In this document: piece by piece, positions 488-4,352 of the stretch
Layout of the letters: the number at the start of each line of letters is the position of its first letter
Position numbering within the stretch: the stretch's first letter is position 1
Translations under genes and position numbers: made by a program
The notes under the pieces: model-generated
Database searches by the model: none
What the model was told of the DNA's origin: nothing
The model's input: the letters and a program-made list of their open reading frames with translations, nothing else
IMG/VR virus record: IMGVR_UViG_3300029499_000061
Direction: 5' to 3' (one strand)
Source of the DNA: a virus
Lineage: Duplodnaviria > Heunggongvirae > Uroviricota > Caudoviricetes
Length of the DNA: 4,352 nt

Positions 488-1570
488 TTAGAACTGGTAA
501 ACCAGACCTACAGCAACGATGTCATCAGTATCAATACCAGCTGTTTTGGTAAACTTACTATCGTCAATTAAGTTGATTTTGTAATCAACAAAAGTGGACA
601 TGTTTTTATTAAAGTAGTAAGTAGCACCGACATCGACATACTTGACTAAGTCTCGGTCACCATGAACACCAAGGTCTTTACCTTTTGACTGAAGGTAAGC
701 AACAGATGGGCGCAGACCGAAGTCAAACTGATATTGTGCTACTGCTTCAAAGTTTTGTGCTTTGTTTGCAATATGGTTATTACCAAAAACGGTCATATTC
801 TGAGTTTCAGAATATGTGGTAGCCAGATAGATATTGTTCGCATCATATTTCAGGCCTGCAGCCCATACTTCCGCATTTTTGCCGGAGGCATTGAATTTGC
901 TCTTACCATAGGCGACCTGACCGTCAGTGCGATCTGATTTAGCATAGGTTGCACCCACGCCGAATCCTTCATACTCATAAGTAGTGGAGAAACCGAAACC
1001 ATCACCATTGGCTTCAGTTACGTCAGTGCGGTCATTTTTACCCTGATACTGAGCAGCAAAGTTCAGGCCATCGACCAGACCAAAGAAGTCGTTGTTACGA
1101 TAAGTTGCAACACCAGTAGTGCGACCAGTCATGAACACATCTGTTTGGGTCCAGGTATCACCACCGAATTCTGGCAGGACGTCAGTCCACGCACCGATGT
1201 CGTATGCTACACCGTAGTTACGGCCGTAATCGATTGAGCCGTAATCACCAAATTTCAGGCCTGCAAATGCAAGACGGGTTTTGTCTTTGGAAGAACCTTG
1301 AGATTCAGCGCGGTTGCCTTTGAATTCATATTCCCACTGACCGAAACCAGTCAGTTGATCGTTGATTTGGGTTTCACCTTTGAAGCCAAGACGGGCATAA
1401 GTAGTATCACCATCATCTGCATCATTAGAGGAGAAGTAGTGCTTAGCATTAACTTTCCCGTACAGATCCAGCTTGTTACTGTCTTTATTATAAATTTCAG
1501 CTGCCTGAGCAGACATCGCCATCAGTACTGATGCAGCTACAGCAGAAATTGCCACTGTTAATTTTTTCAT
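488..1570 (-). CDS. nmpC: Outer-membrane general porin, OmpC/OmpF family (phage-encoded NmpC/Lc type)
   Basis: 360-aa ORF. N-terminal signal peptide [23 protein letters not shown] with an AQA-AE cleavage motif. Mature N-terminus [16 protein letters not shown] matches the AE(V/I)[13 protein letters not shown] start of enterobacterial porins. C-terminal VGLVYQF with terminal Phe is the typical OMP beta-barrel signature. Opposite strand between Q and S, as for nmpC/lc in lambdoid prophages. Confidence 0.95.
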
Positions 1571-1998
1571 CGTGAGCCCTTTTTTTTGAACTATTATTAA
1601 AAAATGATGTCACTGCGCGATAAATATTCATCTAATCAATGTGATTATTTCAAGATGTAAGTTTTGGTTTCTCGTTTAATTTGTGAAGTAGATCTCTATT
1701 TTTATCTGAACTTTTTTCTATCGAATCCTATTCATGGCTCTTGGCTGAATAAAAATAAATCTATTAGCCAATTTATATTAATGGCTGTTATTTATAAGTG
1801 CTCTATAATTTGAAGGTTCAATTTAAATTGGCTAAAAATAACGCTGGAAATTATTTGTTGGTTATTTGTTGAGATTTGCTTATGTATTTGTAGTGGTGTT
1901 TTCAATACTCGGTAGCATTCTCGCAAATATCATTTAGTGGTTTACGTACGTAAAAAATTGGTTATGCTGTTAAGAGTGGTTACTTCGTCACACAGCTT
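1571..1998 (-). promoter_or_regulatory. AT-rich upstream region of the porin gene (promoter and 5' UTR presumed to lie here; exact -35/-10 not resolved)
   Basis: Long AT-rich non-coding stretch directly upstream of the porin start at 1570, with a weak AGGG Shine-Dalgarno 7-10 nt before the ATG. No convincing sigma70 hexamer pair could be assigned by eye. Confidence 0.3.
1851..1891. repeat. Helically phased short direct repeats (TTATTTGTTG x2 in tandem, then two degenerate copies)
   Basis: TTATTTGTTGG at 1851-1861 and TTATTTGTTGA at 1862-1872. The ATTTG core recurs at 1853, 1864, 1874 and 1886, spacing 11, 10 and 12 bp. Confidence 0.5.
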
Positions 1999-2030
1999 AA
2001 ACCCGCCGTCGAGCGGGTTTTTCCATTTTT
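1999..2030 (+). terminator. Candidate rho-independent terminator on the + strand about 115 bp upstream of the holin gene
   Basis: 8-bp stem (1999-2006 AAACCCGC / 2013-2020 GCGGGTTT, loop CGTCGA) followed by TTTTTCCATTTTTT. Confidence 0.6.
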
Positions 2031-2143
2031 TGAGTCTCGATATTAGCTGATAACCCAATACCTGAGTTATTCACTGACTCCGAGTCTGTTACGTTTCGTA
2101 GTATTCCCTCAATTTACACCCGCTTTGTCTGCGAGGTGGGGTT

Positions 2144-2359
2144 ATGAAATCCATGGATAAGTTAACAACGGGTGTCGCCTATGGCACCTCAGCAGGTAGT
2201 GCCGGGTACTGGTTTTTACAGCTGCTCGATAAAGTCACGCCCTCACAGTGGGCAGCAATAGGTGTGCTGGGTAGCCTGGTATTTGGCCTGCTGACGTACC
2301 TGACAAACCTTTATTTCAAGATTAAAGAAGATAAGCGCAAGGCTGCGAGAGGTGAATAA
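2144..2359 (+). CDS. S: Class II holin (pinholin) of the phage 21 S type, with dual-start motif
   Basis: 71 aa beginning Met1-Lys2-Ser3-Met4, the dual start that gives the 71-aa antiholin and 68-aa holin in S21 (alternative start at 2153). Two TMDs: a Gly/Ala-rich SAR-like TMD1 ([21 protein letters not shown]) and TMD2 ([18 protein letters not shown]), then a charged C-terminus [19 protein letters not shown] Shine-Dalgarno upstream. Near-identical to my recollection of S21. Confidence 0.92.
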
Positions 2360-2856
2360 TGCCTCCATCATTACGAAAAGCTGTTGCTGCTGCTATTGGT
2401 GGCGGGGCTATTGCTATAGCATCTGTGTTAATCACTGGCCCAAGTGGTAACGATGGTCTGGAAGGTGTGAGACATAATCCTTACAAAGACATAGTTGGTG
2501 TATGGACTGTATGTTACGGGCATACAGGAAAAGACATCATTCCCGGTAAAACGTATACCGAAGCAGAGTGCAAAGCCCTCCTGAATAAAGACCTTGCCAC
2601 TGTCGCCAGACAAATTAACCGGTACATCAAAGTCGATATACCGGAAACAACGCGCGGCGCTCTTTACTCGTTCGTCTACAACGTGGGTGCTGGCAATTTC
2701 AGAACATCGACGCTTCTTCGCAAAATAAACCAGGGTGATATTAAAGGCGCATGTGATCAGCTACGGCGCTGGACATACGCTGGCGGTAATCAATGGAAAG
2801 GACTGATGACTCGCCGTGAGATTGAGCGTGAAGTCTGTTTGTGGGGGAAACAATGA
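2359..2856 (+). CDS. R: SAR (signal-anchor-release) endolysin, T4-lysozyme-like muramidase
   Basis: 165 aa. N-terminal Gly/Ala-rich weakly hydrophobic SAR domain ([20 protein letters not shown]). Glu35, Asp44 and Thr50 sit at the Glu-9-Asp-6-Thr spacing of the T4 lysozyme catalytic triad. Start overlaps the holin stop (TAATG); stop overlaps the Rz start (ATGA). Confidence 0.93.
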
Positions 2857-3320
2857 GCAGAGTAACCGCGATTATCTCCGCTCTGGTTATCTGCATCATC
2901 GTCTGCCTGTCATGGGCTGTTAATCATTACCGTGATAATGCAATCGCCTACAAAGAACAGCGCGATAACAAGGCCAGTGAACTGGAGAAGGCGAACGCCA
3001 CCATTACTGACATGCAGCAGCGCCAGCGTGATGCTGATGCACTCGATGATAAATACACGAAGGAGTTAGCTGATGCGAAAGCTGAAAATGATGCTCTTCG
3101 GCGCAAGCTTGATAATGGTGGTCGGGTGCTCGTCAAAGGAAAATGCCCTGTGCCATCCTCAGCCGAAACCTCCAGCGCCTCCGGCATGGGCAATGATGCC
3201 ACCGTCGAACTCTCTCCAGTTGCTGGACGAAACGTTCTCGGTATCCGGGACGGAATTATCCGCGACCAAACAGCATTGAGAACGCTTCAGGAATACATCA
3301 GGACGCAATGCCTTCGATGA
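2853..3320 (+). CDS. Rz: Rz inner-membrane spanin (i-spanin)
   Basis: ATG at 2853 overlaps the endolysin stop; the track ORF begins 4 codons earlier at a GTG (2841). N-terminal TM segment [20 protein letters not shown], then a charged, helix-prone periplasmic domain. The N-terminal ~90 residues closely resemble lambda Rz as I recall it; the C-terminal part differs. Confidence 0.85.
3073..3279 (+). CDS. Rz1: Rz1 outer-membrane lipoprotein spanin (o-spanin), embedded in Rz in the +1 frame
   Basis: 68 aa. Signal peptide [19 protein letters not shown] with lipobox VVGC, so Cys19 would be the lipidated residue. Proline-rich mature part ([16 protein letters not shown]). AGGAG Shine-Dalgarno 7 nt upstream of the ATG. 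Lies wholly inside Rz. Start context MRKLKMML parallels lambda Rz1 (MLKLKMML). Confidence 0.8.
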
Positions 3321-3493
3321 TAGCGATAATTTTACTCATCATCCTTCACATCTGGCTCTGTAGACAGGGTGGTGCTCACTTCTGGAGTGAATCCAGATTA
3401 AACATCTCATTGCTGATGCTTGATATTGAGCATTTTGCGCGCGGTAAGGGGCTGCGTTGAGATAAGAGCCAGTCATTACAAATACCAGGATTT

Positions 3494-3517
3494 AGCCTCG
3501 CATTCGCGGGGCTTTTT
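3494..3517 (+). terminator. Candidate rho-independent terminator downstream of the spanin genes
   Basis: 7-bp stem with one G-U pair (3495-3501 GCCTCGC / 3506-3512 GCGGGGC, loop ATTC) followed by TTTTTATT. Confidence 0.5.
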
Positions 3518-3811
3518 ATTGCCATTACAAAAGCCACTTCCTACAGAGTGGCTTTGATAATGGCTTATACCCTACACGGGATAACTTAACTGATATCCCT
3601 TTTAAAGGATAAAGGTATTCAAGCCTGACACATCATGCGCTGTATCGTCGCCGTATTCCCGTATTAACAGAGACCGTAGCCCGACGGGGAACTCCTTCTG
3701 CGCGAGTGTGCGGGAATAATCAATAACGATGCACACCGGGGTTACCGGGTACACATATTTCATCATGCCAGCGAGTCCGGTTCTGGCACGGAAGAAACCG
3801 GACGTTATGAT

Positions 3812-4222
3812 TTAGTGCGGAAATATTTGTGTAGTGTTCTGAATGTTCTCAGTAAAGAGTAATGAATTATCAAAGGTATAGTAATACCTTTTGTTTTCGT
3901 GGATATTTGTAATCCATCTGAAAACCCCTGCTGTAGCAAGATTTTTCCTGTATTCGTAAAATGATAACTCTCCTGATTTGAATCCTTTTAAGGTGGCTTC
4001 TATAAGGCATTTATTTTTTGAAAATCTTACATTTACAACCTTACTCTGTCCTTTTATTAAAACCGTATTATCGTTTTCAAGAACAAGATGAATATTCTCT
4101 GTGGCTAAATAGTAAATGTAATGTGAGACATTGTGACGTTTTAGTTCAGAATAAAACCAGTGATAGTTTAAATTATTTCGCACTTTATCGAATATTTGTT
4201 TAAAAATGGCAACCTGAGCCAT
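3812..4222 (-). CDS. ybcV: DUF1398-family protein, YbcV-like (homologous to the gene next to bor at the right end of lambda and in DLP12); function unknown
   Basis: Track ORF is 3812..4237 (141 aa). The internal Met at 4222 is preferred because GGAAGG sits 7 nt upstream and the 136-aa product begins MAQVAIFK, matching the lambda/DLP12 homologue as I recall it. Position beyond the spanins, on the opposite strand, matches synteny. Confidence 0.7.
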
Positions 4223-4352
4223 TGTAGTACCTTCCATGTGATATGAAGGTACCTAGGGAAGGTGCGAATAAGCGGGGAAATTCTTCTCGGCTGACTCAGT
4301 CATTTCATTTCTTCATGTTTGAGCCGATTTTTTCTCCCGTAAATGCCTTGAA

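Follow-up and report, generated by a model that had tools for sequence, protein, structure and literature searches.

A phage 21-type pinholin/SAR-endolysin lysis cassette with a mosaic spanin gene, from a probable defective lambdoid prophage at the E. coli DLP12 locus

Positions 2144 to 3320 of the window, by which we mean the whole 4,352-nucleotide stretch of DNA analyzed here, very probably hold a four-gene lysis cassette of the essD-rrrD-rzpD/rzoD type, belonging to a defective lambdoid prophage at the E. coli DLP12 locus, with a mechanism that can be predicted by homology. The joining of a small-hole holin, a membrane-tethered lysozyme and a two-part spanin is a well-known and ordinary combination, and a sequence-only reading of this DNA had already called the system a known one. 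The comparisons bear this out, as the cassette is of the ordinary phage 21/DLP12 type, and every sequence feature described in that reading was found in its place. Within the interval the list of open reading frames places four closely packed genes, for the holin, the endolysin, the i-spanin Rz and the o-spanin Rz1. These genes and the elements around them are as follows.

1999 to 2030, plus strand: terminator-like hairpin and T tract from a consensus scan, 114 nt upstream of the holin start
2144 to 2359, plus strand: class II holin gene of the essD / S21 type; open reading frame of 71 aa, PF04971, essD in RefSeq
2359 to 2856, plus strand: SAR endolysin gene of the rrrD / R21 type, a GH24 muramidase; 165 aa, PF00959, with PDB matches
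2853 to 3320, plus strand: i-spanin gene Rz; 155 aa from ATG, PF03245, with an N-terminal TMD and a periplasmic domain
3073 to 3279, plus strand: o-spanin gene Rz1, embedded in the +1 frame of Rz; 68 aa, PF06085, lipobox VVGC (Cys19)
3100 to 3101, no strand: mosaic joint, from blastn of the window against lambda, phage 21 and K-12 DLP12
3494 to 3520, plus strand: terminator-like hairpin and T tract from a consensus scan, downstream of the cassette

The genes abut tightly, with the holin stop and endolysin start overlapping as TAATG and the endolysin stop and Rz start as ATGA. Matched to PF04971, "Bacteriophage P21 holin S", the holin scores 121 bits where the cut-off is 26 (E 2e-35), and the Pfam matches of all four genes lie far above chance level. 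It is identical at 61 of 71 residues (86%) to S21 of phage 21, for which the expert-annotated genome in GenBank, OL657228, served as reference. Phages Kati and Ayreon encode exactly this protein (71/71), as does E. coli K-12, where it is named EssD. The N terminus reads M-K-S-M, a dual start at Met1/Met4, and the gene shares with phage 21 a conserved GAGG Shine-Dalgarno sequence and the dual-start motif ATGAAATCCATGG. Since both starts are annotated in phage 21, as antipinholin S71 and pinholin S68, the Met-Lys-Ser-Met dual start noted in the sequence-only reading is well founded, and the two starts would give a predicted 71-aa antipinholin and a 68-aa pinholin.

The two-TMD layout of S21, also proposed from the sequence, agrees with hydropathy. 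Residues 8-27 (TMD1) are weakly hydrophobic, with 60% G/A/S/T and a mean Kyte-Doolittle value of 0.38, and residues 36-57 (TMD2) are clearly hydrophobic, with a mean of 1.44. The profile as a whole agrees with that of S21, from which TMD2 differs by L47F and F49L only. Outside TMD2, the substitution W27L lies within the aromatic patch YWFLQW, which according to a preprint stabilizes S21 pores; K-12 EssD and isolated phages have the same residue there. Folding of the RNA around the holin translation-initiation region gave a local hairpin that takes in the GAGG Shine-Dalgarno sequence; the overall z-score is -0.75, and we claim no regulatory structure. A PDB search with the holin returned chance-level matches only (E of at least 0.036), and to our knowledge no pinholin structure has been solved.

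For the endolysin, by comparison, solved structures at ~93% identity are available. It matches PF00959, Phage_lysozyme (E 2.3e-48), and its residues 1-165 align to PDB 4zpu (DLP12 RrrD; E 3.8e-104) and PDB 3hde (R21; E 2.7e-103). Identity amounts to 153/165 with R21, including all of residues 1-37, the SAR domain; to 155/165 with K-12 RrrD; and to 162/165 with the endolysin of phage PhiR49_1, which has the same R38/H39/N40. Twelve positions differ from R21, with S38R, Y39H and I40N falling between the catalytic Glu35 and Asp44. The pairwise alignments to S21 and R21 that had been suggested as a check of the sequence-only reading therefore gave very high similarity.

The active site and the membrane anchor attributed to this enzyme are both recognizable. 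A single E-X8-D-X5-T match, the catalytic motif defined in PMC9239132, spans residues 35-50 and supplies the Glu35/Asp44/Thr50 triad that had been named. The Gly/Ala-rich SAR domain corresponds to residues 8-26, where 12 of 19 (63%) are Gly, Ala, Ser or Thr, preceded by R6-K7. In principle, A-I-A at residues 19-21 might be taken for a signal peptidase site, and cleavage or absence of the N-terminal segment had been named as a finding that would count against a SAR endolysin. The segment is present, and the same one is retained in full-length 3HDE and 4ZPU: the solved chains of R21 and RrrD include residues 1-165, and the SAR helix forms part of the fold. By homology to R21, an uncleaved membrane tether and release upon depolarization are predicted for the endolysin.

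These comparisons bear on whether the cassette might work in the manner of lambda S/R, with large holes and an ordinary cytoplasmic or secreted endolysin, despite its resemblance to phage 21. Such a working is extremely improbable. What the cassette shares with lambda (S105/S107, R, Rz/Rz1) is the S-R-Rz/Rz1 order, a dual-start holin, an embedded spanin and the first part of Rz; the gene order and dual-start holin are generic, being common to both systems. In lambda, a cytoplasmic enzyme escapes through large holes (PMC9636201), and a cassette of that type would show a three-TMD holin of ~105 aa with an endolysin lacking an export signal. The window instead encodes a holin of 71 aa with two hydrophobic segments, closest to S21, whereas lambda S, with three TMDs in 107 aa, is 22% identical to it globally. 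Likewise, the endolysin carries the hydrophobic N-terminal segment that is the R21 SAR domain; lambda R, at 21% global identity, is without one. A review adds that S21 68 is unable to complement lambda S (PMC9636201). The assignment made in the sequence-only reading, to the phage 21 pinholin and SAR endolysin type rather than to the large-hole type, is thus strongly favored.

A pinholin/SAR-endolysin pathway can be proposed from the close homology to characterized proteins. The Met1 and Met4 starts would yield two holin products, the longer of which, with its extra Lys2, would be the antiholin. Holin would build up in the inner membrane until the weakly hydrophobic TMD1 exits the bilayer, and TMD2 would then oligomerize into nanometer-scale pinholes that collapse the membrane potential. 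For this protein we infer from the 86% identity to S21 that the holes would be of nanometer scale, would not release a cytoplasmic endolysin and would act through depolarization. Exported by Sec, the endolysin would stay inactive while its uncleaved SAR domain, Gly/Ala-rich and N-terminal, holds it in the membrane, and depolarization would allow its release and refolding to an active muramidase acting via Glu35, Asp44 and Thr50. Once the wall is degraded, a complex of Rz in the inner membrane and Rz1, an outer-membrane lipoprotein, would disrupt the outer membrane. In the characterized systems, S21 68 forms heptameric channels of ~2 nm and collapses the PMF, S21 71 is the antiholin, and SAR endolysins are freed by depolarization (PMC9636201, PMC12642591, PMC9239132). 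The cloned K-12 DLP12 cassette, whose holin is identical to that of the window, gives a lytic phenotype (PMC7918800). Isolated phages carry the same holin (Kati, Ayreon), Rz (Kati) and Rz1 (Ayreon), and we count this as support, since these are functional alleles.

The spanin genes tell a more composite history. Rz, which starts at a GTG at 2841 in the mechanical list of reading frames and at the ATG at 2853 in RefSeq, matches PF03245 (E 3.8e-29) and phrog_13, "Rz-like spanin" (E 1.2e-74), and has a TMD at residues ~4-23 with a mean Kyte-Doolittle value of 2.71. Rz1, which is unannotated in the RefSeq record, matches PF06085 (E 3.8e-21) and phrog_3198 (E 3.8e-26) and is preceded, 7 nt upstream, by an AAGGAG Shine-Dalgarno sequence. 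It is a lipoprotein precursor with a proline-rich mature part, and its VVGC fits the lipobox consensus [LVI][ASTVI][GAS]C. Rz1 spans 0.47 to 0.91 of the length of Rz, as is usual for embedded spanins (PMC6139136). Two cysteines of Rz (Cys98 and Cys153) and one of Rz1 (Cys27) have positional counterparts in lambda, namely Rz Cys99 and Cys152 and Rz1 Cys29, making these periplasmic cysteines candidates for intermolecular disulfides.

Along Rz the affinity changes abruptly. Residues 1-83 are identical to lambda at 71 of 83 positions; from residue 84 to 155 the count is 25/73 to lambda, compared with 69/72 to HK620. Overall, Rz is identical to HK620 at 143/155 residues and to the Rz of phage Kati at 155/155. 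Mature Rz1 agrees with lambda Rz1 at only 17 of 51 residues, and the full protein is identical to Rz1 of phage Ayreon (68/68). At the DNA level, blastn homology to lambda, phage 21 and K-12 DLP12 ends at 3100, 28 nt into Rz1, and resumes at 3636; in between, over 3101-3635, the sequence has been replaced by one that phages Kati, Ayreon, mEp460 and HK620 carry at 95-99% identity. Judged by these identities, Rz is a mosaic, lambda/21-like through nucleotide 3100 and HK620-like beyond.

The description of the cassette as fused to a lambda-like spanin is therefore correct in part. The architecture and the first 83 residues of Rz are lambda-like; the near-identity throughout that a lambda allele would display is missing from the distal part of Rz and from mature Rz1, which are of HK620 type. 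The idea of a chimera between a phage 21-type lysis pair and a foreign lambda spanin does not hold, as the Rz and Rz1 that belong to phage 21 itself match those of lambda at 149/153 and 59/60 residues (97-98%), so that the pairing of 21-type with lambda-type is native; the near-identity is also stated in PMC12642591. The HK620/Sf6/mEp460-type spanin has the same embedded Rz1 and is followed by the same 50-codon reading frame; in HK620, unlike in the window, it comes after a holin and an endolysin of lambda type, which match lambda S at 105/107 and lambda R at 156/158 residues. Because HK620 pairs this spanin with lambda-type S and R, the spanin module is exchanged independently of holin/endolysin type.

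The 50-codon reading frame is present in the window at 3308-3460, where it overlaps the Rz stop codon and has a hydrophobic N terminus. In dozens of phages it is found together with the distal spanin module of HK620 type, and it remains open in a 72%-identical Klebsiella phage copy. Pairs of copies differ by just 3-6 substitutions, too few for dN/dS to serve as a test of coding constraint. We consider it unlikely that the frame is more than spurious and supplies the lysis cassette with a fifth, unrecognized component or a regulator.

The cassette is flanked by two terminator-like hairpins. RNA polymerase modified by Q presumably reads through the one at 1999-2030; between this hairpin and the holin start, K-12 DLP12 and phage Kati match the window exactly (2060-2143). 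The one at 3494-3520 is likely the end of the lysis transcript, and in phage Ayreon a terminator is annotated at the homologous place. A sigma-70 promoter scan returned fewer sites than shuffled sequences, none positioned to drive the cassette, and did not locate the late promoter. The RpoE-like promoter pattern GAACTT-N14-18-TCNNA had no match. A scan of the window for tRNAs found none, and a scan of the whole window and of 3300-3700 against Rfam gave nothing at gathering score; matches below threshold were taken as chance (Trp_leader, 20.8 vs 41; STnc560, 19.9 vs 55; mir-458, 24.7 vs 59).

Private substitutions in the endolysin, or loss of the promoter, might have left a decayed, non-functional cassette. 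The prophage is truncated and has IS5 adjacent, the sigma-70 scan did not find a late promoter, and R88, N144 and K164 of the endolysin occur in none of the seven others compared (R21, K-12 RrrD, 434B, Kati, Ayreon, PhiR49_1 and a Klebsiella phage). Nevertheless, decay is very unlikely, as none of the four lysis reading frames is broken, their ribosome-binding sites are conserved and their stop and start codons overlap; the catalytic motif and SAR domain of the endolysin are intact; isolated phages have the identical holin, Rz and Rz1; and an intact quuD lies upstream in the matching genome.

The genomic surroundings place the functional pinholin/SAR cassette that we favor within the DLP12 locus. 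E. coli chromosomes match the window here at 100% identity, and at least 80% of it is present in 897 of 5426 complete E. coli genomes. In the matching genome, quuD upstream is accompanied by a DUF1398 gene, IS5, envY, ybcH and nfrA downstream. K-12 DLP12 (b0554-b0556, b4510) has the same neighborhood of quuD, nmpC, lysis genes and a ybcV-like DUF1398 gene, along with the shared holin and closely similar endolysin. It differs in carrying the lambda-type distal Rz/Rz1 and borD where the window has the HK620-type module and the 50-codon frame, and in having nmpC split by IS5, the porin gene being intact in the window; overall DNA identity across 563-3100 is just 91.5%. Phage 21 has the gene order, the overlapping junctions, the MKSM start, SAR residues 1-37, E35/D44/T50 and an embedded two-component spanin in common with the window, from which it is unrelated upstream: pR', a terminator and two tRNA genes precede S in phage 21, and an antisense porin gene and a different Q, of the QuuD type, lie there in the window. 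DNA homology between the two runs from 2143 to 3100, the distal Rz/Rz1 being another allele, and the window is without bor.

After the cassette, matching genomes contain IS5 and then host genes, and no virion genes. It follows that the cassette can only lyse or remodel the host envelope, or be recombination stock for superinfecting lambdoid phages. One possibility, which we hold tentatively, is that it has been domesticated for a host function such as low-level peptidoglycan turnover, vesicle control or biofilm, driven by host-controlled promoters and with full lysis rare or never occurring. Besides the neighboring IS5 and host genes, the number of E. coli genomes that retain most of the window speaks for this, as do reports that the K-12 cassette is under a Q-type antiterminator, RpoE and Hha and affects outer-membrane vesicle production, for which domestication was proposed (PMC7918800). 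Against it, the cloned K-12 cassette is lytic (PMC7918800), and the four intact genes are near-identical to those of isolated phages; recent prophage decay or recombination with active phages explains the situation equally, an example being the 434B record, which holds a DLP12-derived segment with the IS5-disrupted porin. Domestication concerns biological role and is compatible with a pinholin/SAR molecular mechanism.

The main value of these results lies in correct annotation, as pinholin/antipinholin, SAR endolysin, i-spanin and o-spanin, of genes that RefSeq labels "phage lysis protein EssD", "lysozyme" and "lysis protein", with the embedded o-spanin gene omitted. The cassette is also a clean textbook case of lambdoid mosaicism, with one recombination joint 28 nt inside the embedded Rz1, and the same holin-endolysin pair adjoins at least three spanin alleles, the lambda type (K-12, phage 21), the HK620 type (window) and a third type (PhiR49_1). 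Finally, an intact and probably lethal lysis cassette without virion genes behind it is relevant to prophage domestication, a matter already studied for K-12 DLP12.

A mechanical ORF list and a Pfam scan of the window give the following layout.

65-298, 3' end of the Q antiterminator gene (PF06530)
488-1570, minus strand, intact porin gene of 360 aa (PF00267, E 1.9e-151)
between the porin and holin genes, AT-rich spacer of 574 nt containing a terminator-like hairpin at 1999-2030
2144-3320, plus strand, four tightly packed lysis genes
3308-3460, plus strand, small ORF of 50 codons
3494-3520, terminator-like hairpin
3812-4237, minus strand, DUF1398 gene
from 4257, IS5 end (4254-4352 matches the K-12 IS5B end at 100% identity)

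Several E. coli chromosomes are 100% identical across the whole window, and at least 80% of it is present in 897 of 5426 complete E. coli genomes. In the matching chromosome NZ_AP022173 (L001), the window lies within a lambdoid prophage, with bet, gam, a cI-like repressor gene, O, P, ren, rusA, and quuD, the Q-type antiterminator gene, upstream. The lysis genes are followed there by the DUF1398 gene, IS5, and the host genes envY, ybcH, and nfrA. This locus is the DLP12 neighbourhood of K-12. The NZ_AP022173 prophage contains no packaging, head, or tail genes and is therefore defective; IS5 directly adjoins envY, so it lacks the stretch from nohD to ompT that K-12 has in its DLP12 region. The IS5 end at 4257-4352 (GGAAGGTGCGAATAAG...) is preceded by CTAG, and its junction is covered by only 4 among the best genomes listed, most matches ending at 4256.

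A phage-21 pinholin/SAR (signal-arrest-release) endolysin cassette had been proposed at 2144-3320 in the sequence-only reading; the description is borne out at these coordinates, and homology supports its main interpretation. The cassette is already known, both as S/R/Rz/Rz1 of phage 21 and as the DLP12 essD-rrrD-rzpD/rzoD module. The holin stop shares TAATG with the endolysin start, and the endolysin stop shares ATGA with the Rz start. The NZ_AP022173 record labels the holin "phage lysis protein EssD"; at L001 14853-15320 it calls Rz only "lysis protein" and leaves the embedded o-spanin gene Rz1 without annotation.

The 71-aa product of 2144-2359 opens MKSM, as had been noticed, and scores 121 bits in the Pfam scan against PF04971, "Bacteriophage P21 holin S" (cut-off 26). 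The expected two-segment pinholin layout is also present, with a weakly hydrophobic segment at residues 8-27 (60% G/A/S/T, mean Kyte-Doolittle 0.38) and a clearly hydrophobic one at residues 36-57 (mean 1.44), in a hydropathy profile superimposable on that of S21. For phage 21 we used the expert-annotated genome OL657228, which marks the S21-71 antipinholin, S21-68 pinholin, SAR endolysin, i-spanin, and o-spanin. Alignment with S21 gives 61 identical residues of 71, the ten differences being I7L, S8T, I11V, W27L, Q30K, S32T, L47F, F49L, R61K, and R64K. The holins of K-12 (EssD) and of phages Kati and Ayreon are each identical over 71/71 residues, whereas lambda S has a global identity of 22%.

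The 165-aa endolysin encoded at 2359-2856 matches PF00959 (E 2.3e-48, Pfam scan) and, over its full length, the solved structures of R21 (3HDE, E 2.7e-103) and K-12 DLP12 RrrD (4ZPU, E 3.8e-104), in which the N-terminal helices are the SAR domain, the membrane anchor of the enzyme (PMC6024848). The proposed Gly/Ala-rich SAR segment was found at residues 8-26 (63% Gly/Ala/Ser/Thr), after Arg6-Lys7, and the catalytic triad, Glu35, Asp44, and Thr50, falls in one match to E-X8-D-X5-T, a motif for recognising true-lysozyme endolysins (PMC9239132). Identity to R21 is 153/165 and is complete over residues 1-37; lambda R, in contrast, is 21% identical globally and has no N-terminal hydrophobic segment. 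Codons 38-40 (window 2470-2478), in the loop between Glu35 and Asp44, encode R38-H39-N40, and codon 53, just past Thr50, encodes Y53, where R21 and RrrD have S-Y-I and H. Phage PhiR49_1 (162/165 identical) shares all four of these residues near the active site, and positions 38-40 read R-Y-N in a homologue from a Klebsiella phage. We read these variants, from such comparisons, as natural variation and not decay.

In the spanin, Rz (2853-3320) matches PF03245 and Rz1 (3073-3279, +1 frame) matches PF06085; Rz1 is embedded, spanning 0.47-0.91 of Rz length, with a VVGC lipobox, and the spanin cysteines are at positions equivalent to lambda's. The cassette had been described as fused to a lambda-like spanin, which holds for the architecture and for Rz residues 1-83 (71/83 identical) but not for the distal half, which is not the lambda allele: only 25/73 residues are identical over 84-155, and only 17/51 in mature Rz1. 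In phage 21 itself, 149/153 residues of Rz and 59/60 of Rz1 are the same as in lambda (96% and 98% in a preprint, PMC12642591), so 21-type genes with a lambda-type spanin are the native phage 21 arrangement. By blastn, the window ceases to match lambda, phage 21, and K-12 DLP12 at 3100, a point 28 nt inside Rz1, and matches them again from 3636. The segment replaced in between, 3101-3635, has 95-99% identity to phages Kati, Ayreon, mEp460, and HK620, and HK620 Rz matches the window's at 69/72 over residues 84-155. In HK620 this spanin accompanies S (105/107) and R (156/158) of the lambda type, and in PhiR49_1 a holin and endolysin of the same types as the window's occur beside a third Rz allele. 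The spanin is a mosaic, its distal, Rz1-containing half being exchanged independently of holin/endolysin type.

In place of bor, which follows Rz in K-12, phage 21, and lambda, the window carries the 50-codon ORF. This putative ORF (3308-3460) is the only loose end of the lysis cassette. Its first 13 nt overlap the Rz stop, and its product has a hydrophobic N-terminus and ends ...ARGKGLR. It matches phrog_11822 (unknown function), whose members lie immediately behind Rz in 44 phage records, HK620, Sf6 (gene 65), epsilon34 (gp67), and CUS-3 among them. A Klebsiella phage copy, 72% identical, is open as 45 codons; substitutions between copies are too few for dN/dS or a coding-constraint test. 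A 34-nt stretch spanning its end and stop (GCGCGCGGTAAGGGGCTGCGTTGAGATAAGAGCC, 3436-3469) is identical in Klebsiella phage ST16-OXA48phi5.2, with flanks ~70% identical, and may represent a recombination sequence at the module boundary or an element acting at the RNA or DNA level. A sub-threshold Rfam hit (19.9 bits; gathering score 55) to STnc560, an sRNA of Salmonella that binds Hfq, covers 3392-3583 (+) across both hairpins beyond the cassette and is probably chance. A 54-codon ORF at 3602-3766 (-), partly within the resumed homology, has no Pfam or PHROG match; phage Kati has a hypothetical protein annotated at about the equivalent place.

Upstream, the intact nmpC/lc-type porin gene lies antisense between the Q and holin genes, whereas in K-12 and the 434B record it is split by IS5. 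Over 1-529 the window has 99.6% identity to K-12, where the sRNA IpeX is reportedly processed from the porin transcript (PMC12197685). The porin-quuD spacer (299-487, -), downstream of the porin stop, has four hairpins in a row, one (349-332) terminator-like by consensus scan. Scans of the window found no late promoter for the cassette; a transcript starting near quuD would cross the porin gene antisense and the hairpin at 1999-2030. The K-12 DLP12 cassette, which has the same holin, is reportedly lytic when cloned, and a Q-type antiterminator, RpoE, and Hha are reported to control it (PMC7918800).

Close homology predicts that the cassette works by the lysis pathway of phage 21. In that phage, S21 68 assembles into heptameric channels of ~2 nm and so collapses the proton motive force; S21 71, which bears an additional positive charge at its N-terminus, is the antiholin; and depolarisation frees the SAR endolysin, which refolds to its active form (PMC9636201, PMC12642591, PMC9239132). 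Pinholin and SAR endolysin would build up in the inner membrane until small channels collapsed the proton motive force, the longer dual-start product acting as antiholin; the endolysin would then be freed and refold into active enzyme, and the spanins would finally disrupt the outer membrane. All sequence features tied to these steps are present and intact in the window.

No virion genes follow the cassette, which therefore cannot serve release of particles of its own prophage. Its role may be host killing on induction, that of a recombination reservoir, on which the deposited 434B genome bears with a DLP12-derived segment including the IS5-disrupted porin gene, or a domesticated one in envelope maintenance or vesicles, as proposed for the K-12 DLP12 cassette (PMC7918800).
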